Notes under the pieces: model-generated
Databases searched by the model: none
What the model was told of the DNA's origin: nothing
The model's input: the letters and a program-made list of their open reading frames with translations, nothing else
Part shown: positions 5,155 through 39,087 of the stretch, piece by piece
Layout: the number at the start of each line of letters is the position of its first letter
Numbering within the stretch: the first letter of the stretch is position 1
Made by a program: the position numbers and the translations under genes
Source: a plasmid
DNA length: 64,000 bases
Strand: one strand, 5' to 3'
Sequence record: NZ_CP019209.1

Positions 5155-5437
5155 ATGGACAGTTTTCAGAGATTGTCACTAGTAAATCAATTTGAGTTAT
5201 TGGCTAAATTTGAGGACCAAAACAGATCTTATTATGAAAGAAAAATCGAAATATTGAGAGAAGGTTACGAGTATCATTATGATGATGAAATTTGGAGTGA
5301 TCTTTCTGAGCCATTTCCGAAAGAAGATTCTCGATTTGTATTAGATGTATTGAACATGTATCGAGATATCAATTTTAGTAAATCAAAGCTAAACTTAGAT
5401 GAAAACCAAATTACTAATTCATACTATACTCATTTCG
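5155..5437 (+). pseudogene. YfbU-family (UPF0304) protein gene, 3' end truncated by IS6-family insertion
   Basis: Translation LVNQFELLAKF...ILREGYEYHY...VLDVLNMYRDI resembles YfbU N-terminal domain; ORF reads into IS6 inverted repeat GGTTCTGTTGCAAAGTTT at 5438. Confidence 0.55.
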
Positions 5438-6245
5438 GTTCTGTTGCAAAGTTTTCCAAAAAATCTATTTTAGTGTAAAATTGAGAAAAAAGACAGAGAG
5501 GACAGAGTAATGAATCATTTTAAAGGCAAACAATTCAAAAAAGACGTCATTATTGTCGCTGTTGGTTACTACCTGCGTTACAATCTAAGCTATCGTGAAG
5601 TTCAGGAATTGTGATATGATCGTGGAATAAATGTTTGTCATACTACGATTTATCGTTGGGTACAAGAGTACAGCAAAGTCCTCTATTATCTTTGGAAGAA
5701 GAAAAATAGACAATCCTTCTATTCATGGAAAATGGACGAAACCTATATCAAAATTAAGGGACGTTGGCATTATCTTTATCGTGCAATTGATGCGGACGGC
5801 TTAACCTTAGATATCTGGTTACGAAAGAAACGGGACACACAAGCAGCCTATGCTTTTCTTAAGCGGTTAGTGAAGCAGTTTGATGAACCGAAGGTTGTAG
5901 TCACAGATAAAGCCCCCTCTATTACAAGTGCCTTTAAGAAACTAAAAGAATACGGCTTTTATCAAGGGACAGAACATCGTACCATTAAATACCTGAATAA
6001 TTTGATTGAACAAGACCATCGTCCAGTAAAGAGACGCAATAAATTCTATCGAAGTTTACGCACTGCCTCTACCACGATTAAAGGCATGGAAGCCATTCGA
6101 GGATTATATAAGAAAACCCGAAAAGAAGGCACTCTCTTCGGGTTTTCGGTCTGTACTGAAATCAAGGTATTATTGGGAATCCCAGCTTAAATCATAGATA
6201 CCGTAAGGGATTTTATTCTTTATTTAAAACTTTGCAACAGAACCC
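5438..6245 (+). mobile_element. IS6-family element, hybrid (5' half identical to ISS1-like copy at 9194, 3' half identical to IS1216 copy at 30446); transposase has premature stop
   Basis: Terminal IRs GGTTCTGTTGCAAAGTTT at both ends; TGA at 5612-5614 where copy 2 has TTA; nucleotide identity switches partner near 5822-5835. Confidence 0.85.
5510..6190 (+). pseudogene. IS6-family transposase with in-frame TGA nonsense codon (5612-5614)
   Basis: MNHFKGKQFKKDVIIVAVGYYLRYNLSYREVQEL then stop; remaining ORF 5732..6190 encodes C-terminal DDE part. Confidence 0.85.
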
Positions 6246-6258
6246 ATTACGAGTCACA

Positions 6259-6313
6259 GTAATTACTTGTAAATACATTATCTCGTGGTATAATGTATTT
6301 ACTAAGTAATTAC
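6259..6313. promoter_or_regulatory. Near-perfect 23-bp inverted repeat (spacer 8 bp) overlapping a TATAAT -10 box; putative autoregulatory operator/promoter of TA operon
   Basis: GTAATTACTTGTAAATACATTAT ... ATAATGTATTTACTAAGTAATTAC; ends ~25 bp before antitoxin start. Confidence 0.6.
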
Positions 6314-6338
6314 ATACTGTTAGAAATGAGGGATTTAA

Positions 6339-6668
6339 ATGATTACAAAAACAAGAAAACAAGGCAATTCAATCATGTTGACAGTACCTAAAGATTTTAA
6401 TGTTCCTAATGGAGTCGAAGTTGAAGCAAAGTTGGTAGAGAATGGTATTCTTTATGAATTTGTTGAACCACAAAAAGAATTTTATGATTTTAGCGAAGAT
6501 ATTTTGTCTGATATAATTGCAGAAGGCTACGATAAAGATGAGATTCTTGTAGAATTTAAGAATAGAAAAAACAAAATGCATTCTTCCTTTAGAGATATTG
6601 CTGAAGATACACTTACTAATTCTAAAGTAATGACTAAAGAGGAGTTGGCAACAGAAATTGGCTTATGA
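6339..6668 (+). CDS. Type II antitoxin, AbrB/MazE (SpoVT-AbrB) fold
   Basis: N-terminal QGNSIMLTVPKDF swapped-hairpin motif; overlaps downstream RelE/ParE-like toxin ORF. Confidence 0.65.
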   Translation: MITKTRKQGNSIMLTVPKDFNVPNGVEVEAKLVENGILYEFVEPQKEFYDFSEDILSDIIAEGYDKDEILVEFKNRKNKMHSSFRDIAEDTLTNSKVMTKEELATEIGL

Positions 6669-6944
6669 AATCGTTCCTTCAAAACATGTCATTAAGTATT
6701 TAAAAAGCTAAAAGAGAAGCCATTGAAAGAAAAATTTTTGAATTTAATTTATGATGAAATTGCGATTGATCCATATAAGGGTGAACAAAAAACTGGGGAT
6801 TTATCAGGTATTTGGTCTAGTGGGTTCAAATATGCGGGCACAACATATAGAGTAGCTTACGAGATTATAGAAAACAAGGTTATTCCAGTATTGTTATGTG
6901 GAACGCATGAAAACTTTTATGAACAGTTGAAAAAATTAATCTAG
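6658..6944 (+). pseudogene. RelE/ParE-family toxin, frameshifted in A5 run (6702-6706)
   Basis: TTG start overlapping antitoxin stop gives MAYEIVPSKHVIKYLKS*; a different frame continues KEKPLKEKFLNLIYDEIAIDPYKGE...YRVAYEIIENKVIPVLLCGTHENFY (RelE/ParE C-terminal signature). One extra A would restore a ~95-aa toxin. Confidence 0.65.
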
Positions 6945-8895: not shown

Positions 8896-9193
8896 GTGAA
8901 AAAGTTTAAAAAGAAAATATATTTAGGATTGGTTGTTGGGGTGAGTATGTTTGGGTTCATGGCTCATACTAAACAAGTAACTGCAGATACTAACCAAAAA
9001 GAAAGGATTATGAGCCAATTAGATGACTCTCAAATAAGTATGTACCCAATGAGCTAATTGTCAGTTTAAAGGCTACACAAAGAATTTCAACAGAGAAAAA
9101 TAAACCGCAAAATTTATTGGGTGTAAAAGTTATGGTGGAAAAAGATTTGACTCTTAGGACAAATGAAAGCGATTGTAATAAGCGAGATCAAGG
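8896..9193 (+). pseudogene. Secreted protein gene fragment (signal peptide MKKFKKKIYLGLVVGVSMFGFMA), frameshifted near 9040 and truncated by ISS1-like insertion
   Basis: GTG start with RBS GGAGGAG; stop at 9055 but a shifted frame continues VPNELIVSLKATQRISTEKN... up to IS inverted repeat at 9194. Confidence 0.4.
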
Positions 9194-10006
9194 GTTCTGT
9201 TGCAAAGTTTTCCAAAAAATCTATTTTAGTGTAAAATTGAGAAAAAAGACAGAGAGGACAGAGTAATGAATCATTTTAAAGGCAAACAATTCAAAAAAGA
9301 CGTCATTATTGTCGCTGTTGGTTACTACCTGCGTTACAATCTAAGCTATCGTGAAGTTCAGGAATTGTTATATGATCGTGGAATAAATGTTTGTCATACT
9401 ACGATTTATCGTTGGGTACAAGAGTACAGCAAAGTCCTCTATTATCTTTGGAAGAAGAAAAATAGACAATCCTTCTATTCATGGAAAATGGACGAAACCT
9501 ATATCAAAATTAAGGGACGTTGGCATTATCTTTATCGTGCAATTGATGCGGACGGCTTAACCTTAGATATCTGGTTACGAAAGAAACGGGATACGCAAGC
9601 AGCCTATGCTTTCTTAAAACGACTCCATAAACAGTTTGGTGAGCCGAAAGCAATTGTGACCGATAAAGCACCTTCTCTTGGCTCCGCCTTTAGAAAGTTA
9701 CAGAGTGTGGGTTTATATACTAAGACAGAGCACCGAACTGTGAAGTATCTTAACAATTTAATAGAACAAGACCATCGACCTATTAAACGACGAAATAAAT
9801 TTTATCAAAGTCTCCGTACAGCCTCTTCCACGATTAAGGGCATGGAGACCATTCGAGGAATATATAAAAAGAACCGAAGAAATGGAACGCTCTTCGGCTT
9901 TTCGGTGTCTACTGAAATCAAGGTATTAATGGGAGTAACAGCCTAAGATATTTGGAGTTCAGAGAGGGCGCGTTTGATTTTCAAACTTCGCAACAGAACC
10001 ATGTTG
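9194..10006 (+). mobile_element. IS6-family insertion sequence, ISS1-like (intact)
   Basis: Terminal IRs GGTTCTGTTGCAAAGTTT (9194) and RC at 9988-10006; 226-aa transposase. Confidence 0.85.
9266..9946 (+). CDS. IS6-family (ISS1-like) transposase
   Basis: MNHFKGKQFKKDVIIVAVGYYLRYNLSYREVQELLYDRGINVCHTTIYRW...; DDE core. Confidence 0.9.
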   Translation: MNHFKGKQFKKDVIIVAVGYYLRYNLSYREVQELLYDRGINVCHTTIYRWVQEYSKVLYYLWKKKNRQSFYSWKMDETYIKIKGRWHYLYRAIDADGLTLDIWLRKKRDTQAAYAFLKRLHKQFGEPKAIVTDKAPSLGSAFRKLQSVGLYTKTEHRTVKYLNNLIEQDHRPIKRRNKFYQSLRTASSTIKGMETIRGIYKKNRRNGTLFGFSVSTEIKVLMGVTA

Positions 10007-11030: not shown

Positions 11031-11487
11031 TTAGGTTCTGTTGCAAAGTTTTCCAAAAAATCTATTTTAGTTTAAAATTGAGAAAAAAGACAGAGAGGAC
11101 AGAGTAATGAATCATTTTGGTGAGCCGAAAGCAATTGTGACCGATAAAGCACCTTCTCTTGGCTCCGCCTTTAGAAAGTTACAGAGTGTGGGTTTATATA
11201 CTAAGACAGAGCACCGAACTGTGAAGTATCTTAACAATTTAATAGAACAAGACCATCGACCTATTAAACGACGGAATAAATTTTATCAAAGTCTCCGTAC
11301 AGTCTCTTCCACGATTAAGGGCATGGAGACCATTCGAGGAATATATAAAAAGAACCGAAGAAATGGAACGCTCTTCGGCTTTTCGGTGTCTACTGAAATC
11401 AAGGTATTAATGGGAATAACAGCCTAAGATATTTGGAGTTCAGAGAGGGCGCGTTTGATTTTCAAACTTCGCAACAGAACCAAATAG
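11031..11487 (+). mobile_element. Internally deleted ISS1-like IS6 derivative (MITE-like, 457 bp) retaining both terminal IRs
   Basis: Left IR at 11031, right IR ending 11487; in-frame deletion joining codon 4 to ~codon 125 (MNHF|GEPKAIV) at TTT microhomology. Confidence 0.8.
11107..11427 (+). pseudogene. Truncated IS6 transposase (in-frame internal deletion, 106 aa, lacks N-terminal region)
   Basis: Comparison with 9266..9946. Confidence 0.8.
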
Positions 11488-18068: not shown

Positions 18069-19110
18069 CCCGTGGTGCTAGTTAATTTTAATATCCTAAA
18101 GAATATCTCAAAGTTCCTTCAAAACGTCGTTGTGCTCGACTTAATAGAGAACACTGTAAGCCAGTAATATGCTTTCAAATCTACTCTCTAGCCCTTTAAC
18201 AGAACGTGAGTTGAAATTTTGACAACCTAATTTTTCTAAGGAAGAAAAAACAGTCTCAACTGTTTTTCTTTGTTTTCCAAGTAAGCTGTGGTCTAGTTTT
18301 TCTGATTTATCCATGTTTTTACGTGGCGGAACGGATATAGTAATGCCCATAAGGGCAAGCTTTTCATGGATTTTATGGCTAATATATCCTTTGTTCCCTA
18401 GGATATTGGGAAGATTCGCTTCTTCCGATAAAGTCTCTAACACTTTCACGTCATGGACACCTGGATTCGTGATTGAGTAAGTAATCGGAAAGCCAGTCTT
18501 AGTAACGATCATATGAATTTTAAGACCATAAAAATAAGATTTTTTTGTTGAGTTATAGCCAACTTTGGTTATTTGATTCAATAGTTTTGCTTGTCTATTT
18601 CTAACTGGTTTACATAATGGACTAGGAAAACTATCTATAATTCCGACTAGTTCACCTTTGGTGAGCTTCTTGATGAAAAAGTATCGAATAATCTTGATAG
18701 TGTAAGCTAAGTTTGAACTTAAGCGAGTGAATCGACTCCTACTAGGAAAGTCACCATTAGGAAATAAGACGGAACAAACCGCTCTATACGTGGCTCTTTG
18801 GCTAGTATAGCCATTAATTATGCCCCATATAACACAAGCAATAATCACTGTATCGCGTTGCTTCAGTTGATCAGTATTTCTTCGGTTTTTAATCTTATCT
18901 GGTACACAATTGTGGTATATGTTAGAAACAGTTCTCATAATTTCCTTGAATGTTATAAAAGTATCTGTATAATGTTCAGTATATTTTGATGAACGCATAT
19001 GTAGTCCTCATTTCTTGGGAGTTTTGAGACTACTATATGCGTTTTTTTGTTGATTTACCAACATGTTTAGACATTTTCCTCTAGGAAAAAATTAACTAGC
19101 ACCACGGGTT
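18069..19110 (-). mobile_element. IS982-family insertion sequence (ISEfm1-like), copy A
   Basis: Terminal IRs ACCCGTGGTGCTAGTTAATTTT at 18069 and RC at ~19089-19110; near-identical to copy at 24758..25791. Confidence 0.8.
18141..18998 (-). CDS. IS982-family transposase (3' end altered by 2-bp insertion relative to copy B)
   Basis: 285 aa vs 302 aa in copy B; CTCTATTAA vs CTATTAA near 18150. Confidence 0.8.
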   Translation of the reverse strand: MRSSKYTEHYTDTFITFKEIMRTVSNIYHNCVPDKIKNRRNTDQLKQRDTVIIACVIWGIINGYTSQRATYRAVCSVLFPNGDFPSRSRFTRLSSNLAYTIKIIRYFFIKKLTKGELVGIIDSFPSPLCKPVRNRQAKLLNQITKVGYNSTKKSYFYGLKIHMIVTKTGFPITYSITNPGVHDVKVLETLSEEANLPNILGNKGYISHKIHEKLALMGITISVPPRKNMDKSEKLDHSLLGKQRKTVETVFSSLEKLGCQNFNSRSVKGLESRFESILLAYSVLY

Positions 19111-24757: not shown

Positions 24758-25791
24758 TAGTTAATTTTTTCCTAGAGGAAAATGTCTAAACATGTTGGTA
24801 AATCAACAAAAAAAACGCATATAGTAGTCTCAAAACTCCCAAGAAATGAGGACTACATATGCATTCATCAAAATATACTGAACATTATACAGATACTTTT
24901 ATAACATTCAAGGAAATTACGAGAACTGTTTCTAACATATACCACAATTGTGTACCAGATAAAATTAAAAACCGAAGAAATACTGATCAACTGAAGCAAC
25001 GCGATACAGTGATTATTGCTTGTGTTATATGGGGCATAATTAATGGCTATACTAGCCAAAGAGCCACGTATAGAGCGGTTTGTTCCTTCTTATTTCCTAA
25101 TGGTGACTTTCCTAGTAGGAGTCGATTCACTCGCTTAAGTTCAAACTTAGCTTACACTATCAAGATTATTCGATACTTTTTCATCAAGAAGCTCACCAAA
25201 GGTGAACTAGTCGGAATTATAGATAGTTTTCCTAGTCCATTATGTAAACCAGTTAGAAATAGACAAGCAAAACTATTGAATCAAATAACCAAAGTTGGCT
25301 ATAACTCAACAAAAAAATCTTATTTTTATGGTCTTAAAATTCATATGATCGTTACTAAGACTGGCTTTCCGATTACTTACTCAATCACGAATCCAGGTGT
25401 CCATGACGTGAAAGTGTTAGAGACTTTATCGGAAGAAGCGAATCTTCCCAATATCCTAGGGAACAAAGGATATATTAGCCATAAAATCCATGAAAAGCTT
25501 GCCCTTATGGGCATTACTATATCCGTTCCGCCACGTAAAAACATGGATAAATCAGAAAAACTAGACCACAGCTTACTTGGAAAACAAAGAAAAACAGTTG
25601 AGACTGTTTTTTCTTCCTTAGAAAAATTAGGTTGTCAAAATTTCAACTCACGTTCTGTTAAAGGGCTAGAGAGTAGATTTGAAAGCATATTACTGGCTTA
25701 CAGTGTTCTATTAAGTCGAGCACAACGACGTTTTGAAGGAACTTTGAGATATTCTTTAGGATATTAAAATTAACTAGCACCACGGGTTATT
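24758..25791 (+). mobile_element. IS982-family insertion sequence (ISEfm1-like), copy B, inverted relative to copy A
   Basis: IRs ACCCGTGGTGCTAGTTAATTTT at 24758 and RC at ~25770-25791. Confidence 0.8.
24859..25767 (+). CDS. IS982-family transposase (302 aa, apparently intact)
   Basis: See above. Confidence 0.85.
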   Translation: MHSSKYTEHYTDTFITFKEITRTVSNIYHNCVPDKIKNRRNTDQLKQRDTVIIACVIWGIINGYTSQRATYRAVCSFLFPNGDFPSRSRFTRLSSNLAYTIKIIRYFFIKKLTKGELVGIIDSFPSPLCKPVRNRQAKLLNQITKVGYNSTKKSYFYGLKIHMIVTKTGFPITYSITNPGVHDVKVLETLSEEANLPNILGNKGYISHKIHEKLALMGITISVPPRKNMDKSEKLDHSLLGKQRKTVETVFSSLEKLGCQNFNSRSVKGLESRFESILLAYSVLLSRAQRRFEGTLRYSLGY

Positions 25792-25891: not shown

Positions 25892-26827
25892 ATGTCAGTT
25901 TATACATGTACTTTAAACTTGGCAATCGACCTTTTTATCGAAACAGATGAAATGAAACCATCCCAAGTCAATCGAACAAACGATTATGATATACAAGCTA
26001 ATGGAAAAGGGGTGAATGTTTCATTGATCATGAAGCAATTAGGTATCGATAGTACAGCTTTAGGATTTAAAGCAGGTTTTACCGGGAATTATATTGAGGA
26101 TTATTTGCATCAAAAAGATATTAGCACTGATTTTATTAGCGTACCGGGAATGACTAGAATCAACGTTTTTACACAAGTTAATAAAACCAATGAAGAATTC
26201 AAATTGGTTAATAAAGGACCTGAGATTCCTCAGGAACAAATCAAAACTTTTCTAAATCAAATACAAAAGCTGCAAGCTGACGATTATTTGTGTGTTTCTG
26301 GCAGTTTGCCGCGAGGGGTCTCACCCGAAATTCTTATTAATATCAGTCGTATTTGTTTTGAAAATAAGGTCCATCTGATTATTGATTCAAGCTATCCGGA
26401 AATAATTGATTGTCTGCCGTATCAGCCGTTCTTATTAAAACCAAACGAGGAGGAATTGCAATCTTGGTATAATGTCGAGCTTAGTGATCGTGAAGGATAT
26501 ATTCATTATGCTGAACGCTTGATTGCCGATGGAGCGAAAAATGTTCTCCTTTCTCTAGGAGGAGAGGGAGGAATATTTTTAAATAAGGATATCGTTTATT
26601 CTGGGAATTCTCCTAAAGGTAAAGTAGTCAATACAGCGTGTGCTGGTGACACTTTGTTGGGAACATTTCTTGCAGGATATTTAAAAGGTGAACAGGTAGA
26701 TATTAATTTGAAGAAAAGTTTAGCAGCTGGAAGTTCAACCGCTTTTCGTAAAGGATTAACAGATTTTTCGGATGTTGCAGAGTTGGAAAAACAAATCGAA
26801 ATCAAAGAGGGAGCGAGTAAAAAATGA
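25892..26827 (+). CDS. PfkB-family sugar-phosphate kinase (tagatose-6-phosphate kinase / 1-phosphofructokinase type)
   Basis: N-terminus MxVYTxTLNxAIDL typical of LacC/FruK; C-terminal GAGD anion hole (ACAGDTLLG). Confidence 0.75.
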   Translation: MSVYTCTLNLAIDLFIETDEMKPSQVNRTNDYDIQANGKGVNVSLIMKQLGIDSTALGFKAGFTGNYIEDYLHQKDISTDFISVPGMTRINVFTQVNKTNEEFKLVNKGPEIPQEQIKTFLNQIQKLQADDYLCVSGSLPRGVSPEILINISRICFENKVHLIIDSSYPEIIDCLPYQPFLLKPNEEELQSWYNVELSDREGYIHYAERLIADGAKNVLLSLGGEGGIFLNKDIVYSGNSPKGKVVNTACAGDTLLGTFLAGYLKGEQVDINLKKSLAAGSSTAFRKGLTDFSDVAELEKQIEIKEGASKK

Positions 26828-28269
26828 CAACTTACAAAATTGTTGCCGCAACAGGATGTCCAACAGGAATTGCCCACACTTATATGGCTCAAGAAGCATT
26901 GGAGCAGGCAGCTAAGCGCAAAGGGGTATCTATCAAAGTTGAAACCCATGGTCAAGTAGGGATAGAGAATGAATTAACACCAGAAGAAATAAAAAACGCT
27001 GACGCTGTAATCATTGCAGCTGACAAAGATGTTCAAGCAGAACGTTTCGCAGGTAAGCGTGTAATCGATGTGCCTGTCAGCAAGGGGATTAAAGATGCTG
27101 ACCAATTGATCGAAGATGCGTTGGCTGGTAAAGGTTCAATCATTGCAGAAAACAAAACAGTTGACGCTGCTGGTGAGAAAGCGGAGATGGGGGTTGCAGC
27201 AGGCATTGGTCACAGTATTTATAAAAATCTCATGAACGGTGTTTCTCATATGCTGCCGTTTGTAGTGGCAGGTGGGGTAATTATTGCAATTTCGTTTGCC
27301 ATCTGGGGTGTGTACTCTTTTGATCCCAATGATCCTACTTACAATCCGACTGCCGCTATGTTAAAGGGTGTTGGTGATGCGGCAATGGGAATGATGGTTC
27401 CTATTTTAGCAGCTTATATCGCTGAAGGAATCGCTAAACGTCCTGGTTTGGTTGTTGGGTTTGTTGGCGGACTGTTAGCCAATTCTGGCGGAGCCGGTTT
27501 CTTAGGCGGAATTTTTGCAGGTTTCTTAGCAGGCTACTTTATCTTACTATTGCAAAAGGTCATGAAAGGCTTGCCTAAACAATTGGATGGTCTGAAGGCG
27601 ATCTTCTTATATCCGGTGATCGGTGTCTTGTTTGTTGGTGTAGTCATGTCTTTATTAGCAAATCCAATGGAAGCAGTCAACCAAGGAATGATGAATTTCT
27701 TGGCAGGATTCCAAAATTCTAATCCATTAATTTTAGGGATTATCGTTGGCTGTATGTCAGCATTTGATATGGGAGGTCCAGTCAATAAAGCGGCTTATGT
27801 TACAGGGACTGCGTTGTTGGCACAAGGTAACCATACATTTATGGCAGGGGTTTCGGCAGCTTGTATCGCGCCCCCATTGATTACTGGATTTGCCGTACTG
27901 TTTTTTGGAAAATATTTCGACACGAATGATCGCAACGCTGGTTTAGTCAACTTTATCTTGGGCTCAACGCACATTACCGAAGGAGCAATTCCATTTGCGG
28001 CTAAAGATCCGCTGCGTGTTCTGCCAACTATGATGCTAGGTTCATCAATTGCTGCTGTACTGACATATATGTTTGGTGTCCAAGTTCCCGCACCTCATGG
28101 AGGTTTTCTAGTATTACCTGTTGTTACTGGTAAGGTTGCATGGGTAGGGTCGATTTTACTTGGTTCAATCGTTGGCGGAGTAATTTTAGGGTTGATCCAA
28201 AAACGTAGTGTAGAAAAACGTGAAGCAGAAGCAGCTACTGTTGAAATGAAAGAAGAAACCAACAACTAA
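26824..28269 (+). CDS. PTS fructose-family EIIBC component
   Basis: N-terminal IIB domain with GCPTGIAHTYMA phospho-cysteine motif followed by multi-TM IIC. Confidence 0.8.
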   Translation: MTTYKIVAATGCPTGIAHTYMAQEALEQAAKRKGVSIKVETHGQVGIENELTPEEIKNADAVIIAADKDVQAERFAGKRVIDVPVSKGIKDADQLIEDALAGKGSIIAENKTVDAAGEKAEMGVAAGIGHSIYKNLMNGVSHMLPFVVAGGVIIAISFAIWGVYSFDPNDPTYNPTAAMLKGVGDAAMGMMVPILAAYIAEGIAKRPGLVVGFVGGLLANSGGAGFLGGIFAGFLAGYFILLLQKVMKGLPKQLDGLKAIFLYPVIGVLFVGVVMSLLANPMEAVNQGMMNFLAGFQNSNPLILGIIVGCMSAFDMGGPVNKAAYVTGTALLAQGNHTFMAGVSAACIAPPLITGFAVLFFGKYFDTNDRNAGLVNFILGSTHITEGAIPFAAKDPLRVLPTMMLGSSIAAVLTYMFGVQVPAPHGGFLVLPVVTGKVAWVGSILLGSIVGGVILGLIQKRSVEKREAEAATVEMKEETNN

Positions 28270-28296
28270 AGGTTATTCTAGAAAGAAGGATTTCAA

Positions 28297-28752
28297 ATGA
28301 CTTTGATCAAAACAAATAAAGTTTTTATGAATAAAAATTTTACGACGCAAGATGAGGTAATGAACTTCCTTGCAGATCAGTCAATTGTCTTGAGCATTAG
28401 TGAAGACCGAGATGCAGTTTACGAAAAATTGATGGAAAGAGAAGAAGAAAGCACGACTGGTATGATGGATGGTTTTGCCATCCCTCATGCCAAAGATGCT
28501 AGTATCAAGGATGCCGATATTGTGATTGTTCGGTTAAACGGTAAGGTCGATTGGAAAAGTTTAGATGGAGAAGGAACGGATTTTGTAATCGCTCTGTTTA
28601 TTCCAGATTCAGAGGCTGGAACAACCCATCTAAAATTTTTATCTCAGGTAGCCAGACTTTTGATGCACAAAGATGTGACAGAAGGTCTGAAACAAGCCCA
28701 GTCTGCTGAAGAAATAGCTGAACTTTTAAACCAAAAATTAGAAGAAAACTAA
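28297..28752 (+). CDS. PTS fructose/mannitol-family EIIA component
   Basis: Active-site His context MMDGFAIPHAKD; 151 aa. Confidence 0.75.
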   Translation: MTLIKTNKVFMNKNFTTQDEVMNFLADQSIVLSISEDRDAVYEKLMEREEESTTGMMDGFAIPHAKDASIKDADIVIVRLNGKVDWKSLDGEGTDFVIALFIPDSEAGTTHLKFLSQVARLLMHKDVTEGLKQAQSAEEIAELLNQKLEEN

Positions 28753-28770
28753 AAAGGAAGTAGTGAAATC

Positions 28771-29745
28771 ATGCCTTTAACAGAAAAAAAGAAAACTTAT
28801 ATTCGTCAACTAAGTAATGAAAGTGGCATCATCAGTGCGTTAGCAATCGATCAACGTGGTGCCTTGAAAAAAATGATCGGTAAATTTCAAAATCAATCAG
28901 CAACCGATGAACAAATCATCAATTTCAAAAAAATCATTTCTTCTGAATTGACTCCATATGCTTCAGCAATCTTATTAGATCCAGAATATGGGTTGCCGGC
29001 AGCCGAAGTTCGCGATAAAAATGCTGGTCTGTTGTTGGCCTATGAAAAAACTGGTTACGATGCTTCAACTCCAGGACGTTTACCGGATATTTTATCTATT
29101 TGGTCTGTAAAACGTCTAAAGGAGCAAGGGGCCGATGCTTGTAAGTTCTTGTTATACTACGATGTAGATGAATCTGATGATATCAATGACCAAAAGAAGG
29201 CGTTTATGGAGCGGATTGGTTCTGAATGTGTTGCTGAAGATTTGCCATTTTTCTTAGAATTGGTTTCTTATGATGCCAACGATCCTGATACTTCTTCGAA
29301 GGAATATGCCTTGAAAAAACCGCATAAAGTAAATGAAATGATGAAGGAATTTTCTAAGCCTCGCTATGGAGTTGACGTTTTGAAAGTGGAAGTTCCTGTT
29401 AATATGAACTATGTGGATGGTTACACTAAAAATGAAGTTGCTTATACCAAAGAAGAAGCTGCTGCTTATTTCAAAGAACAATCCGAGACTACCAACCTGC
29501 CATTTATTTTCTTGAGCGCAGGAGTAACTGCTGAATTGTTCCAAGAAACCTTGAAATTTGCAAAAGAGGCTGGCTCTACATTCAATGGGGTACTCTGTGG
29601 GCGCGCAACTTGGGCGAATGGTGTAGAACCATTCGTTACTAAAGGTGAATATGCTGCCAAAGAATGGATGCAGACACAAGGACGCAAGAACATCGAAGAG
29701 CTGAATAATGTTTTGAAAGAAACAGCAACAGCTATTAAATTGTAA
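28771..29745 (+). CDS. lacD: Tagatose-1,6-bisphosphate aldolase (class I, LacD family)
   Basis: 324 aa, LacD-like N-terminus (LTxxKxxxxxxLSxxxGIIxALAxDQRG). Confidence 0.75.
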
Positions 29746-29854
29746 GAAAGCTTTAACTATAACCTTAAGTTTGTAACCTAATGATTTTTAATAATCAATT
29801 TGAGCTTTTAAATAAAGAATTGGAAGCGTCCCGACGCTTCCTTTTTCGTTTGTC

Positions 29855-30345
29855 TTAAGGCATGATAGGTTCTATGTTGTCGTTCAATAAGCGCAAGAAG
29901 GTCAGCATTTTTTTCTTAGAGTATGCAAAATTGCTTTCTACCCAATGATTTAAAACGGAGAGGCACCCTTGGATATGGTAAATGGTGAAGTAACGCATTT
30001 CTTCTGTGATCACGGTTTTTTTGTCTTCTTGTAGCCAGATTTTTAAATAATTTTCTTCGATCAGATTATTTAATCTCTTTTGGAATTGGATATCTCCGTG
30101 GTTGATAACGAATAACTTGTACACGAACGTATTTGTATAGACATAGTCGATCAAATGAGCGTATAGATCCTCGTAGCTGTGTGTCGTGTCATAGGAAATG
30201 ATTTCATCCAAGTCTTAGAAAAAGCTATTTTCTAGCTTTTCATAAAGATCATAGATATCCGTATAATGTTTATAAAATGTCGAACGGTGAAGATCAGCAG
30301 TTTCGGTCAGTTCACGGATAGTGATGTTTTGAATTTTTCGCGAAT
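29855..30345 (-). pseudogene. TetR-family regulator with internal TAA between HTH and ligand-binding domain and no clear start
   Basis: Reverse translation 30215-30330 gives NSRKIQNITIRELTETADLHRSTFYKHYTDIYDLYEKLENSFF* then DLDEIIS... continuing as ORF 29855..30211. Confidence 0.6.
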
Positions 30346-30445
30346 TGTAAAATTAAGTTAGAAAAATAAAAAGGCATTTATGGTACACTCAAATTGTATT
30401 TCCGACGAAAGAAAACAAAGGAGTGTAACCATAAATGACCTACAA

Positions 30446-31255
30446 GGTTCTGTTGCAAAGTTTTAAATAAAGAATAAAATCCCTTACGGTATCTATGATT
30501 TAAGCTGGGATTCCCAATAATACCTTGATTTCAGTACAGACCGAAAACCCGAAGAGAGTGCCTTCTTTTCGGGTTTTCTTATATAATCCTCGAATGGCTT
30601 CCATGCCTTTAATCGTGGTAGAGCCAGTGCGTAAACTTCGATAGAATTTATTGCGTCTCTTTACTGGACGATGGTCTTGTTCAATCAAATTATTCAGGTA
30701 TTTAATGGTACGATGTTCTGTCCCTTGATAAAAGCCGCCGTATTCTTTTAGTTTCTTAAAGGCACTTGTAATAGAGGGGGCTTTATCTGTGACTACAACC
30801 TTCGGTTCATCAAACTGCTTCACTAACCGCTTAAGAAAAGCATAGGCTGCTTGTGTGTCCCGTTTTTTACGTAACCAAATATCCAAGGTTAAACCATCTG
30901 CATCGATGGCTCGATACAAATAATGCCATTTTCCTTTAATTTTGATGTACGTTTCATCCATTTTCCATGAATAAAAGGATTTTTTATTTTTCTTTTTCCA
31001 AATTTGATAGAGTAGTTTGCCATATTCTTGCACCCAACGATAAATCGTCGTATGAGAAACGTTAATGCCACGATCATATAAGATTTCTTGAACTTCACGA
31101 TAGCTAAGGTTATAACGAAGATAGTAGCCCACGGCTACAATAATCACATCCTGCTGAAATTGCTTTCCTTTAAAATGATTCATCGTCATTCCTCCTGCTA
31201 TCTTTTTCTATTATTCTACCTTATTTGATAGTAGATTTAAAACTTTGCAACAGAA
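30446..31255 (-). mobile_element. IS1216-type IS6-family insertion sequence (810 bp, intact)
   Basis: IRs GGTTCTGTTGCAAAGTTT at 30446 and RC at 31237-31255; transposase 30500..31189. Confidence 0.9.
30500..31189 (-). CDS. IS1216-type IS6 transposase
   Basis: MNHFKGKQFQQDVIIVAVGYYLRYNLSYREVQEILYDRGINVSHTTIYRW... Confidence 0.9.
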   Translation of the reverse strand: MTMNHFKGKQFQQDVIIVAVGYYLRYNLSYREVQEILYDRGINVSHTTIYRWVQEYGKLLYQIWKKKNKKSFYSWKMDETYIKIKGKWHYLYRAIDADGLTLDIWLRKKRDTQAAYAFLKRLVKQFDEPKVVVTDKAPSITSAFKKLKEYGGFYQGTEHRTIKYLNNLIEQDHRPVKRRNKFYRSLRTGSTTIKGMEAIRGLYKKTRKEGTLFGFSVCTEIKVLLGIPA

Positions 31256-31520
31256 CCATTTAGCGGCTAAATTAGTAAAATTTTTAAAAAATAAGAATAA
31301 ACGAGTGATGGAACAATTATCGATTATTGGATTTGATGATATTACTTTTGCAGAATTAATGGATCCTGCGTTGACAACAATACGACTAAATCCAGGTAAC
31401 AAGGGGGCGATTGCTTTTCACCAACTGATTGGACTGGCCAAACAAGAAGAAATAAAAAATCAAGTACTACTATTAGAGGGAGAATTGATTTCTCGAGACT
31501 CTGTTCACAAAATCAAATAA
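31256..31520 (+). pseudogene. C-terminal fragment of a LacI-family regulator truncated by IS1216
   Basis: SIIGFDDITFAELMDPALTTIR... (LacI C-terminal sugar-binding domain); ORF starts inside IS. Confidence 0.65.
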
Positions 31521-31734
31521 AAAAGCTCTGTGAAATAAGTATAGTTAACAATAAAATATCCGAACGATAGAGAGAATGAACTGTGATCTAGCAGTTCCTC
31601 GTCGGAAATTCACTAGAATTAGCATTATTTACTCTAAATTGTTCGGATATTTTTTCTTGTTTTTAATTATGATTACAGTGCCTATTTTTAACGAAATTTG
31701 CTTATTTTCAAAATGTATGATTATATTTTAGTAA

Positions 31735-32790
<1,056 letters not shown>

Positions 32791-32794
32791 AAAA

Positions 32795-32830
32795 GTAAAC
32801 ATCCAAAAAAGGATGTTTACTTTTTTGTTT
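32795..32830 (+). terminator. Rho-independent terminator GTAAACATCC-AAAAAA-GGATGTTTAC + T6
   Basis: Read directly. Confidence 0.7.
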
Positions 32831-32861
32831 ACTAATATTTTTAGTAAAAAATCTCGACAAA

Positions 32862-32918
32862 ACATTAAGTAAACAGTTATGGTGTTGTTAACAAAAAGAA
32901 AACGCATTCAAAACAGGA
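32862..32918 (+). promoter_or_regulatory. Conserved promoter/operator block shared with 37421..37480, including a cre-like element AGAAAACGCATTCA (32897..32910)
   Basis: ~50 of 57 nt identical between the two solute-binding-protein upstream regions; one mismatch to cre consensus WTGNAANCGNWNNCW. Confidence 0.5.
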
Positions 32919-32927
32919 GGAATTAAG

Positions 32928-34193
32928 ATGAAACATTTCAAAAAAATAGCTTTAACAGGGATAGCTGTTTTAACTGGGACATTACTCGCAGCATGTGGTG
33001 GGGGAGATAGTAATTCTAAAGACGGGCAAGTAACTTTAAGCTATGCGAGTTGAGATACTGACCAAGCTCCAGGACTAAGAAAAATATTAGATGAATTTGA
33101 AAAACAAAATCCTGATATCAAAGTAGAAATGGAGACAACGCCTTGGGATCAATATTGGGTTAAATTAGAAGCTGCAACAACGGGAGGTAATATGCCAGAT
33201 GTAGTAACCATGCACTCTAGCGAATCCTATAAATATATGTCACAGAATGCTTTGATGGGACTTGATGATGTTATCAAAGAAAATGATATTGACATGGGAA
33301 ACTTTACTGAAGGAATTGCTGATTTCTATACGCTTGAAGACGAACTATACGCAATCCCTAAAGATGCTTCTGTAGTGGGGCTATGGTACAACAAAGAATT
33401 ATTTGATAATGCAGGTGTCGATTATCCAGATGAAACATGGACATGGGAAACACTCAGACAAGCTGCAATTGATTTAACAGATGAATCAAAAGGCATCTAT
33501 GGTTTTGCATCACATATTGGAACAGAGACTGGCTACTGGCCATTTATTTATCAAAATGGGGGAGAAGTATTTGCCGATGACAATACAAAATCAGGTTTGA
33601 ATACCCCAGAAGCACAAGAAGCTTTAGCTTTTTATCGAGATATTGCACTTGTTGATCATGCTTCACCAACAATTACAGAATTACAAGATCCTGATAAGTT
33701 AAGTCGTTTTCAATCAGGTAGATTAGCAATGATGATTGAAGGAAACTGGTTTGCACCGGGATTTTTGAAAAATGACTATCTAGTTGAAAATGTTGCTTCT
33801 GCCGTGTTACCTAAGGGAAAAGTTAATGCAACAATTACAAATGGACTTGGTTGGGCTGCCAGTGCGAATACAAAATACCCAGAAGAAGTGAAAAAACTAA
33901 TGGCATTTTTAGCTAGTGAGGACGCCAATAAAATCCAAGCGGAAACGGGGGCATCAATCCCAGCACTAAAAGGCTTTGAAGACGAGTGGGCTGCTTCTTC
34001 AGATACAATTGATTTGAGTGCTTTTGGAAAAATGTTGGAGTATGGAGTCCCTCGTCCATACAATAAAGATGGATTACGAGCTGAACAAGCAGAAGTTCAA
34101 ATTATTAACCGTATTCTGTCTGGTGAAGTAACTGTTGAAGATGGAACCGCTCAAATTGAAAAAGAAGTCAATGCGATATTGAGCGGAAATTAA
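32928..34193 (+). pseudogene. Sugar ABC transporter solute-binding lipoprotein with in-frame TGA (33051-33053) where Trp is expected (YAS*DTDQAPG)
   Basis: Signal peptide + lipobox LLAACGG; remainder 33129..34193 is a family-1 solute-binding protein. Confidence 0.75.
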
Positions 34194-34266
34194 ATTAGTT
34201 AATTATACAATATACAGGCGAAAGGATTCTATTTCGTCTGTATATTAATGGATGAATACCAAAAAG

Positions 34267-35172
34267 GGGGATATTATGAAAAATCGAATTTTTGGAAAAT
34301 ATCGTAAAGATCAAGTGATATGGGGCTATATTTTTATTTTTCCAACGGCATTAGGATTAATTTTATTAAATATATGGCCAGCAATTCAAACAGCAATTTT
34401 AAGTTTTCAAAAAACGGTAGGGTTCGGTGATACTGAATGGGTCGGATTAAGAAATTACCAAAAAATGTTTGCAGACGGTGAAGTTTTTCAGTCTTTATTA
34501 AACACATTAATTTATGCAGTGGTTTCGATACCTAGTATTGTTGTATTATCCTTGTTGGTGGCAGTTTTAATGAATAGAAAAGTTAAAGGATTGTCGATTT
34601 ATCGGACAATTTATTTTCTACCAGTCGTTGCTGCACCATCCGCAGTCGCAATGATTTGGCGCTGGATGTTCAATAATGATTATGGACTGATTAATAACAT
34701 GTTGGCTAAAATAGGTCTCGATGGACCAGCATGGTTAACGGATCCATCGATTGCGATTTATTCTATTATCATTGTAGGAGTTTGGAGTGCTATTGGTTAT
34801 AACATGGTGTTATTACTAGCCGGCTTATAAGAAATTCCTAAAGATTATTATGAAGCATCGGAAATTGATGGTGCTAGTCCAATCCAGCAGTTTTTCAACA
34901 TTACGTTACCATTAGTTACACCAACATTATTTTTTGTAGTTGTAACAACAGTTATCAATGCTTTCCAAGTATTTGATGTTATTTTTATGATGATTACTCC
35001 TAATAGTACCGCCATGTTTAAATCACAATCATTAGCCTATTTATTCTATAAACATTCATTTATTTTAAATGACAAGGGATATGGTTCGGCAATCGTTATG
35101 TTCCTTTTAGTGATTATATTAATTATTACTGCAATTCAAATGAAGTTGCAGAAAAAGTGGGTAAACTATTAA
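34267..35172 (+). pseudogene. Sugar ABC transporter permease (MalF-like) with TAA nonsense at 34828-34830 (CAA expected: LAGL*EIPKDYYEASEIDGAS)
   Basis: Same frame remains open from 34831 to 35172 and encodes the EAA-loop and C-terminal TMs. Confidence 0.75.
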
Positions 35173-35187
35173 GGAGGCTATCAAATT

Positions 35188-36012
35188 ATGAAAAATAAAT
35201 TTTTTTCAAATGCGCCAATCCATATCATGCTTATTTTAGGTGGTATTGCAATGGCATTACCTTTTATTTGGATGATTTTAACTTCAGGGAAAACGTTGGT
35301 TGAATCTACCCAAATTCCACCTACAATTTTCCCTGAGAAATTTCAGCTAAGTAACTATCAACAAGTACTTGATTTATTACCATTCATGGCTTTTTATATC
35401 AATATATTTTTAATGGTTGTTGGACGAGTGATTGGCTCGGTTTTATTTTCAGCAATGGCTGCATATGCTTGTGCGCGTCTAAGTTTTCCAGGGAAAAATA
35501 TCCTTTTCAGCTTAGTACTTATTCAAATGATGATTCCCGGTTCCATTTTTATTACTCCACAGTATTTATTAGCACAAAAATTGGGTATTTTAAATACAAT
35601 TCCAGCATTAATATTACCAGGGGTAGTTAGTGCGTTTGGTACGTTTTTATTAAGACAATTTTTCTTAGGTTTGCCTGATGAATTGGAGGAAGCGGCCTAT
35701 TTAGAAGGTGCCAATATTTGGACGATCTTTTTCAAAATTATGTTGCCGCTTGCTAAATCAGGATTGGTTGCACTTGGAATATTCACAGCGTTGTTTGCAT
35801 TTAAAGATTTAATGTGGCCATTGATTGTCAATACTTCAATTGATAAGATGCCTTTAGCTCCGGGATTAGCAAACTTACAAGGACAATATGCCACGAACTT
35901 CCCACAATTAATGGCAGGTTCGTTATTAGCAATTTGGCCAATAGTTGTGATATTCATCGTTTTCCAAAGAAAATTCATTGAAGGAATTGCTACAACAGGT
36001 GGTAAATTATAA
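35188..36012 (+). CDS. Sugar ABC transporter permease (MalG-like)
   Basis: Multi-TM with EAA loop LEEAAYLEGANIWTIFFKIMLPL. Confidence 0.85.
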   Translation: MKNKFFSNAPIHIMLILGGIAMALPFIWMILTSGKTLVESTQIPPTIFPEKFQLSNYQQVLDLLPFMAFYINIFLMVVGRVIGSVLFSAMAAYACARLSFPGKNILFSLVLIQMMIPGSIFITPQYLLAQKLGILNTIPALILPGVVSAFGTFLLRQFFLGLPDELEEAAYLEGANIWTIFFKIMLPLAKSGLVALGIFTALFAFKDLMWPLIVNTSIDKMPLAPGLANLQGQYATNFPQLMAGSLLAIWPIVVIFIVFQRKFIEGIATTGGKL

Positions 36013-37354: not shown

Positions 37355-37462
37355 AAAGAAGCTGAAAGAGTAAGGAATTTTCAATTCCTTACTCTTTTCT
37401 TAGTTAAATTTAGTAAAAATATTGACAAAACACTTAGTAAACAGTTACATTAGTGTTAACAA

Positions 37463-37951
37463 AAAGAAAACGCATTCAAATTGTATAAGGAGGAGCATAA
37501 AATGAAGTGGTCTAAAAAAATTATTTTAGCTTGTATAGCACTAGGAGCAACGATCTCTTTGACTGCTTGTGGAAAAAATCAGGAAGATGCAAGCGGTAAG
37601 GTAGAAATAGAGTTTTTTAATCAAAAAAGAAAACGCATTCAAATTGTATAAGGAGGAGCATAAAATGAAGTGGTCTAAAAAAATTATTTTAGCTTGTATA
37701 GCACTAGGAGCAACGATCTCTTTGACTGCTTGTGGAAAAAATCAGGAAGATGCAAGCGGTAAGGTAGAAATAGAGTTTTTTAATCAAAAAAGAAAACGCA
37801 TTCAAATTGTATAAGGAGGAGCATAAAATGAAGTGGTCTAAAAAAATCATTTTAGCTTGTATAGCACTAGGAGCAACGATCTCTTTGACTGCTTGTGGAA
37901 AAAATCAGGAAGATGCAAGCGGTAAGGTAGAAATAGAGTTTTTTAATCAAA
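37463..37951 (+). repeat. Three tandem copies of a 163-bp unit (cre-like element + RBS + first 41 codons of the solute-binding-protein gene)
   Basis: ATG/RBS recur at 37502, 37665, 37828 with period exactly 163; first two copies create identical 49-codon lipoprotein-signal mini-ORFs. Confidence 0.9.
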
Positions 37952-39087
37952 AAAAAGAAATGACTCAAACGATTCAGGAGATTGCTAAAGATTTTGAAGC
38001 AAAAAACCCTGATATTCATGTAAAAGTTGTGGATGTACCGAATGCTGGTGAAGTAATTAAAACACGTATGCTTGCAGGCGATGTACCAGATGTCATTAAT
38101 CTTTATCCTCAAAGTATAGAATTGAAAGAATGGGCGAAAGCTGGTTATTTAGAGGACTTAACCGAAGAACCGTATTTAGAGAATATCAAAAATGGATATG
38201 CACAACGTTTTGCTATTGAGGATCGTGTATATAGCATACCATTAACCGCTAATGTCTATGGTTTTTACTATAACAAAACTGCTTTTGAGGAAATGGGGAT
38301 TCAAGCACCAGAAACTTGGGCAGAATTTGAAAAAATAGTAGCTGAGATTAAAGATCAAAACAAAGTACCGTTTGCGATTGCAGGAGCAGAAGGCTGGACT
38401 TTAAATGGTTATCACCAACTAGCTATAGCGACTGCTGCTGGTGGTGAAGAGGAAGCGAACAATGTTTGGCGTTTCTCAGAAGTTAATGGAATTAATGCTG
38501 AAAGCAAAGAAATGCAAAAAGATTTTAATCGATTAGATTTGTTAAGAGAACCAAAAGCTTTGCAAAACAACTGGCAAGGTGCCGGTTATAACGATACAGT
38601 AGTTACTTTTACAAAAGGTGATGCGTTGATTATGCCGAATGGTTCATGGGCAATGCCGATGATTCATTCACAAAATCCAGATTTTGAAGTAGGAACTTTT
38701 CCTTTTCCAGCAGATGAAGCAGGTCAAAGTCTAACGATTGGCGCAGGAGACCTAGCCTTATCAGTTTCTGCAACTTCTCAACATAAAGAAGAAGCCAAAC
38801 GTTTTGTAGAATATATGACAACACCTGAAGCGATGCAGAAATATTATGATGTAGATGGTGCACCGTGTGCTGTTGAGGGCGTTATCGAGAATACTCAGGA
38901 TTCACCATTAAGTGGTTTAACTGAACTTGCTTTTACTGATCGTCATTTAGTTTGGTTAGCCAAAGATTGGAATAGTGAAAATGATTTTTATACCTTAACA
39001 ACAAATTATTTACACAATGGCAATCAAAAAGCCATGATTAACGCATTAAATGCTTTCTTTAATCCAATGAAAGCTGACGGAAGGTAG
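37828..39087 (+). CDS. Sugar ABC transporter solute-binding lipoprotein (raffinose/melibiose-type); true start at the third repeat copy
   Basis: MKWSKKIILACIALGATISLTACG lipoprotein signal; family-1 solute-binding protein. Confidence 0.85.
   Translation: MKWSKKIILACIALGATISLTACGKNQEDASGKVEIEFFNQKKEMTQTIQEIAKDFEAKNPDIHVKVVDVPNAGEVIKTRMLAGDVPDVINLYPQSIELKEWAKAGYLEDLTEEPYLENIKNGYAQRFAIEDRVYSIPLTANVYGFYYNKTAFEEMGIQAPETWAEFEKIVAEIKDQNKVPFAIAGAEGWTLNGYHQLAIATAAGGEEEANNVWRFSEVNGINAESKEMQKDFNRLDLLREPKALQNNWQGAGYNDTVVTFTKGDALIMPNGSWAMPMIHSQNPDFEVGTFPFPADEAGQSLTIGAGDLALSVSATSQHKEEAKRFVEYMTTPEAMQKYYDVDGAPCAVEGVIENTQDSPLSGLTELAFTDRHLVWLAKDWNSENDFYTLTTNYLHNGNQKAMINALNAFFNPMKADGR

Follow-up and report, generated by a model that had tools for sequence, protein, structure and literature searches.

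The stretch of DNA analysed here (the window; 64,000 nucleotides of record NZ_CP019209.1) is part of an Enterococcus faecium megaplasmid of the pLG1 type (rep_cluster_893), which carries many sugar-utilisation genes and insertion sequences. Positions 5437-6244 of the plus strand hold an 808-bp element of the IS6/IS26 family that combines a left part of ISS1N with a right part of IS1216. On its left lies a sucrose-utilisation region that ends in a truncated yfbU gene; on its right come the end of a txe gene, an AbrB/RelE gene pair, ParA and a 182-aa open reading frame. The element has the attributes of its family, namely a length of ~0.8 kb, terminal repeats that start with GG, and a single DDE transposase frame (once codon 35 is read as Leu). 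The initial annotation had placed its ends at 5438 and 6245; the perfect 19-bp terminal inverted repeats put them at 5437 and 6244. The features needed below are listed here, with L numbers denoting sequences compared with the window.

5155-5436, plus strand: 5' part of a gene of the yfbU family, which the left IS end truncates after codon 94 of ~175
5437-5455, plus strand: left terminal inverted repeat GGTTCTGTTGCAAAGTTTT, beginning with GG
5437-5827, plus strand: ISS1N-derived segment (391 bp), differing from copy 9193 only at 5613
5510-6190, plus strand: transposase reading frame of 226 codons, a pseudogene broken by TGA
5612-5614, plus strand: TGA nonsense codon 35; copy 9193 and the intact hybrid alleles of L003-L013 have TTA here
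5732-6190, plus strand: residual 152-aa reading frame from Met75, with the DDE core kept and the N-terminal DNA-binding region gone
5828-5835, plus strand: crossover interval AAACGGGA (8 bp), the only bases without an assignable parental origin
5836-6244, plus strand: IS1216-derived segment (409 bp), identical to canonical IS1216
6226-6244, minus strand: right terminal inverted repeat, matching the left repeat at all 19 bp
6245-6262, plus strand: end of a txe/yoeB toxin gene, its last five codons and stop, cut by the right end of the IS
9193-10000, plus strand: intact ISS1N copy with a 226-aa transposase, in direct orientation 3756 bp downstream of the hybrid
30446-31257, minus strand: IS1216 variant of 812 bp with a private CGG duplication and one private SNP

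A BLAST search with 5238-6445 revealed three further IS6-type copies in the window, at 9193-10000 (plus), 30446-31257 (minus) and 11034-11481 (plus). The first of these, which together with the hybrid brackets the AbrB/RelE-ParA module, is of the type that PGAP names "IS6-like element ISS1N family transposase" in matching plasmids, and the second is of the type named "IS6-like element IS1216 family transposase". The two parental types are only 73.9% identical over their full length (598/809), with a longest identical block of 19 bp, and reach 84-88% only in the central region corresponding to 5590-5860; their ends have 19 bp in common at the left and 11 bp at the right. Copy 30446 encodes a 227-aa transposase with the motif EYGGFYQ (WP_002329840.1), and its private SNP changes Ala to Gly. 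A 10-kb query around it, spanning 26000-36000, was at least 80% covered in one place in just 6 PLSDB records. The third copy is a 448-bp derivative of ISS1N, 98.7% identical to copy 9193, which retains both terminal repeats and has suffered an in-frame internal deletion of 351 bp (positions 86-436 of copy 9193). It encodes a 106-aa reading frame (11107-11427; partial PF13610), has no target duplication, and resembles a miniature non-autonomous element.

The initial annotation had proposed that the element changes partner along its length, and a three-way alignment with both resident copies bears this out. Informative sites were taken as the 215 positions in the element at which 9193-10000 differs from the reverse complement of 30446-31257. 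The element matches the ISS1N copy at all 88 such sites up to and including 5827, and the IS1216 copy at 123 of the 127 from 5836 onwards (Fisher p = 3e-56 for the switch). The four exceptions are the CGG triplet after 5952 and base 6066, and at each of them the hybrid agrees with every other IS1216 examined in related plasmids, so that the changes are private to copy 30446. Against canonical IS1216, for which the copy in L002 was used, 5828-6244 is identical at 417/417 positions. Overall identity is 87.8% to the local ISS1N copy and 88.8% to the local IS1216 copy by BLAST. The partner-switching identity is thus real and far beyond chance, each part being identical or nearly so to one of two named parents, with a single sharp change from one to the other confined to 8 bp, and the description of the element as a recombinant of two distinct IS6-family members stands, with ISS1N as the type on the left and IS1216 as the type on the right.

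Several details of the original description require adjustment. The left half had been called identical to an ISS1-like copy starting at 9194; it matches at 399/400 positions, the one difference being G for T at 5613, and the copy begins at 9193. Identity to IS1216 had been said to begin at about 5822, and though the right half is indeed IS1216, it begins at 5828. Because IS1216 differs at 5824 and 5827, the block common to both parents is only the 8 bp of AAACGGGA (5828-5835), and not the 14-bp stretch CGAAAGAAACGGGA in which the switch had been located.

The distribution of the hybrid shows how it came to be in this molecule. An 810-bp query of the element found matches of at least 99% identity in 117 PLSDB records, and a 271-bp probe centred on the junction did so in 107. 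The junction-bearing plasmids were E. faecium among the matches listed, and those examined were pLG1-type megaplasmids. The hybrid that bears this junction nearly always has the same neighbours, the truncated yfbU on one side and the txe remnant on the other; indeed, a 300-bp left flank with the yfbU fragment was found in 104 PLSDB records (103 of them at 99% identity or more), and an IS6 hybrid directly adjoins it in 102. In a public protein collection the truncated 152-aa reading frame is present on 184 contigs, strain Aus0085 included, and an intact 226-aa hybrid protein ("MULTISPECIES: IS6 family transposase [Enterococcus]") on 73. Since an identical hybrid with the usual flanks recurs in about 100 independent E. 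faecium megaplasmid records, the allele has been inherited within one plasmid group rather than generated in this molecule. Record counts mark the parents as the common forms and the hybrid as derived: best matches of at least 99% numbered 1558 records for a pure-IS1216 query and 507 for a pure-ISS1N query, and came from several genera. Among 185,579 species-representative genomes there were zero matches to the exact junction, and likewise zero to any hybrid with ISS1N on the left and IS1216 on the right that switches within 5612-5856. A metagenome scan yielded two contigs with hybrids, both with other flanks and other junctions. In L005 and L021 the hybrid and its usual flanks lie on contigs of 2.9 and 2.8 Mb, so either megaplasmid DNA is integrated in the chromosome or the assemblies were joined there.

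These counts leave little room for the earlier claim that the recombination took place within this replicon. Both parental types are present in the window, and the near-identity of the left half to copy 9193 would fit a local exchange between it and copy 30446. The same hybrid in about 100 plasmid records, with the same flanks, and on 184 contigs is not what such an exchange would leave behind. Moreover, copy 30446 is not the donor, because its private 3-bp duplication and private SNP are absent from the hybrid, as they are from the other IS1216 copies checked. A crossover with that inverted copy would also have inverted ~24 kb and left a reciprocal hybrid (IS1216 left, ISS1N right), and there is none in the window. 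An origin in this replicon is therefore highly improbable. An artefact deserves mention as well, since IS copies are classic sites of mis-assembly, where a collapsed repeat can give a chimeric consensus, and a stop codon can arise from an erroneous base call. Many closed plasmids, sequenced independently and of various countries and years, have the same junction and the same TGA, and the differences between alleles follow lineage; this recurrence in independent closed assemblies rules out an assembly artefact and leaves the explanation with a negligible probability.

The nonsense codon was confirmed by comparison with copy 9193, as was the claim that it ends the transposase early: G at 5613 turns Leu35 (TTA) into TGA, and 34 codons remain. 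Codon 35 lies in the N-terminal region ahead of the DDE domain. When the stop is repaired, the 226-aa product matches PF13610 (DDE_Tnp_IS240) with E = 8.7e-42 over residues 72-202, and also PF00665 (rve). Within the DDE domain, the crossover corresponds to codons ~107-109, where the two parental proteins do not differ. In some records the residual 152-aa frame is annotated as "Integrase core domain protein". The TTA allele is found in the hybrid context in L003-L007 and others (protein WP_060811670.1), and because this intact allele sits in the same context in related plasmids, the stop codon is younger than the hybrid. L017 has TTA at codon 35 and a separate CAA-to-TAA stop at codon 52 (Q52*). 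Read-through or recoding of the TGA was considered and rejected, given that sister plasmids have TTA at this position and another lineage has a different stop. The copy in the window is unable to make transposase. Its terminal repeats are intact, so mobilisation in trans by another element is conceivable, and its remaining role is likely that of passive homology for recombination with ISS1N and IS1216. No Rfam model had a match in the window.

The flanks carry their own record of rearrangement. The yfbU fragment covers positions 3-94 of 166 in the Pfam YfbU profile, and an intact homologue of 175 aa is encoded in an E. casseliflavus plasmid. The 3' half of the gene was not found in E. faecium plasmids, where there is only a 54%-identical paralogue on small plasmids. 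There is no 8-bp target-site duplication around the hybrid, which is flanked by CTCATTTC and CATTACGA; hence it did not reach its present site by simple insertion. In the IS6/IS26 family, a missing target duplication is common after recombination between copies. On the right, the txe/AbrB/ParA module also occurs in other megaplasmids behind a pure IS1216, with yfcC (L024) or tcrB (L002) as the left neighbour, and there 126 or 95 bp more of txe remains, respectively. Synthetic queries were used to look for pure parents at the site. Among plasmids, the left flank joined to ISS1N or to IS1216 met hybrids only, with neither pure ISS1N nor pure IS1216 beside the yfbU fragment, and with a query of pure IS1216 plus the right flank, the only IS1216 ends met were displaced outwards in txe by 95 or 126 bp. 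Joined fragments, the missing pure parent and the missing target duplication together fit an exchange that joined two segments with loss of DNA.

Within the module itself, the RelE/ParE-family toxin gene (6658-6944, plus) has a frameshift near 6701, where one A has been lost from a run of A, as judged against a 95-aa gene in L001; the AbrB antitoxin-like gene (6339-6668) is intact. With the yfbU-flanked classes included, the IS1216-type right end is found at four nested positions in txe/yoeB, retaining 126, 95, 24 and 0 bp more than the window in L024, L002, L025 and the window itself (left neighbours yfcC, tcrB and the yfbU fragment). This series suggests repeated IS-adjacent deletions or repeated insertions in the toxin gene.

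Hybrids differ in where the switch falls, and five arrangements were distinguished.

Boundary 5828-5835: the window and most records; yfbU fragment on the left, CATTACGA on the right
Boundary 5816-5823: L010 and L017; flanks as in the window
Boundary 5612-5625: L025 and L026 (14 PLSDB records); same left flank, 24 bp more txe on the right, C-to-T at the last base of the IS
Boundary 5840-5856: L008 and L027; unrelated flanks
Switch in 5645-5661: L028 (a gut-metagenome contig); unrelated flanks, with a match to ISS1N again at one later site, 5836

Every breakpoint found lies within an identical block of 8-19 bp. Each boundary class with the yfbU flank has its own SNP haplotype on both flanks, which argues that the join of yfbU fragment, IS and txe remnant is old and single and that the boundary was shifted later, by lineage. 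Against a single join is the fact that the 5612-5625 class keeps 24 bp more of txe, so that an extra loss of 24 bp is required; as lost txe cannot be regained, this loss is placed in the branch of the window.

Further rearrangement is evident in some relatives. CP111521.1 (L012/L013) has three hybrid copies as the result of a tandem duplication of a 3755-bp unit of IS plus module, and copies 2 and 3 have the left flank of the ISS1N copy, a later rearrangement driven by homology. The duplication looks like IS-mediated amplification of the partition/toxin-antitoxin module; the first of the three copies has TGA and the other two are intact. In L011 (CP129222.1), ~190 bp of the yfbU fragment is inverted between ISS1N and hybrid copies of opposite orientation, which is the signature of inversion between inverted IS left ends. 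No target-site duplication was found around any of the hybrid copies in new flanks (L008, L027, CP111521.1), and all of these can be explained by homologous flank exchange. The hybrids of L008, L027 and L028, all with other flanks, could also be independent events rather than descendants. In E. faecium plasmids, no full-length match of at least 99% identity to a reciprocal hybrid was found. The nearest sequence (98.5%) was in Lactococcus raffinolactis pWiKim0068-1 (L030), where it is the remnant of an IS1216-ISS1N-IS1216 mosaic with breakpoints in the 5840-5856 and 6154-6172 blocks. Together with L028, this mosaic outside the E. faecium megaplasmids suggests that IS1216/ISS1 mosaicism may be common in this IS group.

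These observations fit a natural hybrid with a layered history, a reading that we regard as very probable: an old join between ISS1N and IS1216 in a pLG1-type ancestor, later shifts of the boundary, and finally a stop codon. The hybrid formed in an ancestor of an E. faecium pLG1-type megaplasmid lineage, and that the two parents exchanged DNA is plain from the alignment; the mechanism is what we infer. A founding recombination would have fused the left end of ISS1N and its first ~109 transposase codons to the remainder of IS1216, presumably linking two formerly unrelated segments, one on the yfbU side and one carrying the txe remnant, AbrB, RelE and ParA, with loss of the 3' half of yfbU. In sister lineages the boundary was probably moved by gene conversion against IS copies with ~400 bp of perfect identity to one half, by means of conversion tracts that would begin within the identical half and run to the next block of identity. 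A small 24-bp deletion beside the IS end would be a separate step. A T-to-G change then made Leu35 (TTA) into TGA, in an order fixed by the intact alleles. The present copy is an immobile scar with intact ends that can still offer homology for RecA-type exchange with ISS1N and IS1216. Crossover and gene conversion both appear to be involved, as the evidence suggests one old join followed by boundary shifts, and exchange between hybrid and ISS1N could account for a SNP at 5662 that L004 has in both its hybrid and the adjacent ISS1N copy. Among the plasmid matches to the synthetic queries, none had the two parents at the sites expected of an ancestor; the founding event is thus a reconstruction rather than an observation.

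Gene conversion could also account for the hybrid by itself, if an IS resident between yfbU and txe was half overwritten from the other IS type and the flanks were never joined by the event. The variable boundary among sister lineages with the same flanks, the SNP at 5662 in both elements of L004, and a directly oriented ISS1N donor only 3.7 kb away would all be expected on such a history. It sits poorly with flanks that are fragments of unrelated genes and bear no target duplication, though the window's ISS1N and IS1216 copies likewise lack duplications, which makes their absence weak evidence either way. It sits no better with the occurrence of the right-hand module elsewhere behind pure IS1216 with other left neighbours, with the finding of a pure parent at the yfbU/txe site in no plasmid, or with the fact that the pure parents offer no stretch of identity longer than 19 bp from which conversion could start. 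On balance, conversion alone is unlikely, while deserving serious consideration.

The low identity of the parents also counts against the old join followed by boundary shifts, as RecA exchange at 74% identity, with blocks of 19 bp at most, is expected to be very inefficient. This is the attraction of a RecA-independent origin, whether by a transposase-driven targeted conservative exchange between the two IS types that is resolved inside the element, by template switching during replicative transposition, or by homology-facilitated illegitimate recombination anchored in the shared downstream module. The identical blocks that hold all the breakpoints, of 8-19 bp each, are too short for RecA to act on efficiently, and IS1216 has been reported to perform the targeted reaction (review PMC7986276). 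That said, the targeted conservative reaction depends on identity both of the transposases and of the DNA where the ends react, and mixed pairs without such identity gave no reaction (PMC7885326). ISS1N and IS1216 lack this identity, their common ends being just 19 bp (left) and 11 bp (right) long, and the junction is ~390 bp from either end, across many mismatches. We consider a RecA-independent origin decidedly improbable and retain the old join with later boundary shifts as the preferred account.

Compared with its parents, the hybrid is a simple composite. IS1216 (IS1216E/V; 808-809 bp, 226-aa transposase) is the main IS6-family element of enterococcal resistance plasmids. The right 417 bp of the hybrid, its right terminal repeat and the C-terminal ~117 codons are the common enterococcal allele of IS1216, whereas its left 391 bp is only 77% identical (303/392); PGAP gives the protein of the intact hybrid just the general name "IS6 family transposase" and does not assign it to the "IS1216 family". 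ISS1N of Lactococcus is 808 bp long, with a 226-aa transposase, 18-bp terminal repeats and an 8-bp target duplication (ISfinder, PMC6807381). The hybrid shares that length, and its left 391-399 bp, left terminal repeat and first ~109 codons are those of ISS1N, in contrast to the right 409 bp, which is only 70% identical (286/409). Under the ISfinder rule that elements with less than 95% nucleotide identity are different ISs (PMC6807381), the hybrid would qualify as an IS in its own right, being 87.8% and 88.8% identical to the local ISS1N and IS1216 copies.

The closest precedent comes from Acinetobacter plasmids, in which two IS26-family elements have given rise to the natural hybrid IS1006/1008 (Harmer & Hall 2021, PMC7885326). 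In each case two related IS6/IS26-family elements that share terminal repeats have been combined at one sharp crossover, which falls within a few identical bases (172-175 there, 392-399 in this hybrid); the left part is identical to one parent and the remainder to the other. They differ in that the parents of the window's hybrid are from Gram-positive clade II and 74% identical, compared with 75-93% in the Acinetobacter/IS26 set. Moreover, the transposase of IS1006/1008 is that of IS1008, whereas the crossover in the DDE domain makes the protein encoded here itself a hybrid, and the copy in the window is inactivated by a nonsense codon. No specific description of an ISS1/IS1216 hybrid or chimera was found in the literature, and the sequence is in more than 100 public records. 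The hybrid reveals neither a new mechanism nor a new kind of element, natural hybrids being already known in the IS family.

Its value is of a more practical kind. A conserved hybrid at a fixed site is a handy lineage marker for a group of E. faecium megaplasmids, and it documents recombination between elements that are only 74% identical. For annotators, the calls "IS6 family transposase", pseudogene and "Integrase core domain protein" at this locus all refer to one hybrid element. Elements of the IS1216 and ISS1 types are responsible for much of the reshuffling of resistance and metabolic plasmids in enterococci, and the hybrid may conceivably be more than a scar, serving as an adaptor between the two types, with boundaries that record ongoing conversion and selection that silences the transposase. 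If so, its ~400 bp of perfect identity to each of two IS populations that otherwise recombine poorly could let modules bounded by ISS1N and modules bounded by IS1216 be exchanged by ordinary homologous recombination; the boundaries at 5612-5625, 5816-5823 and 5828-5835 would be a record of continuing gene conversion; and L35* in the window and Q52* in L017 would reflect selection against a transposase beside a partition/toxin-antitoxin module. This larger role is doubtful.

Two other repeat arrangements were seen in the window. Perfect inverted 901-bp copies of an IS982-family element (18148-19048 and 24809-25709) bracket ~5.8 kb with an MFS transporter, an IS3-family element and a MurR/RpiR regulator, in a composite-transposon-like layout. 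At 37461-37969, just upstream of a sugar ABC-transporter binding-protein gene, there are three tandem copies of a 163-bp unit, 96-100% identical, which are annotated as duplicated 49-aa hypothetical proteins in a related plasmid.
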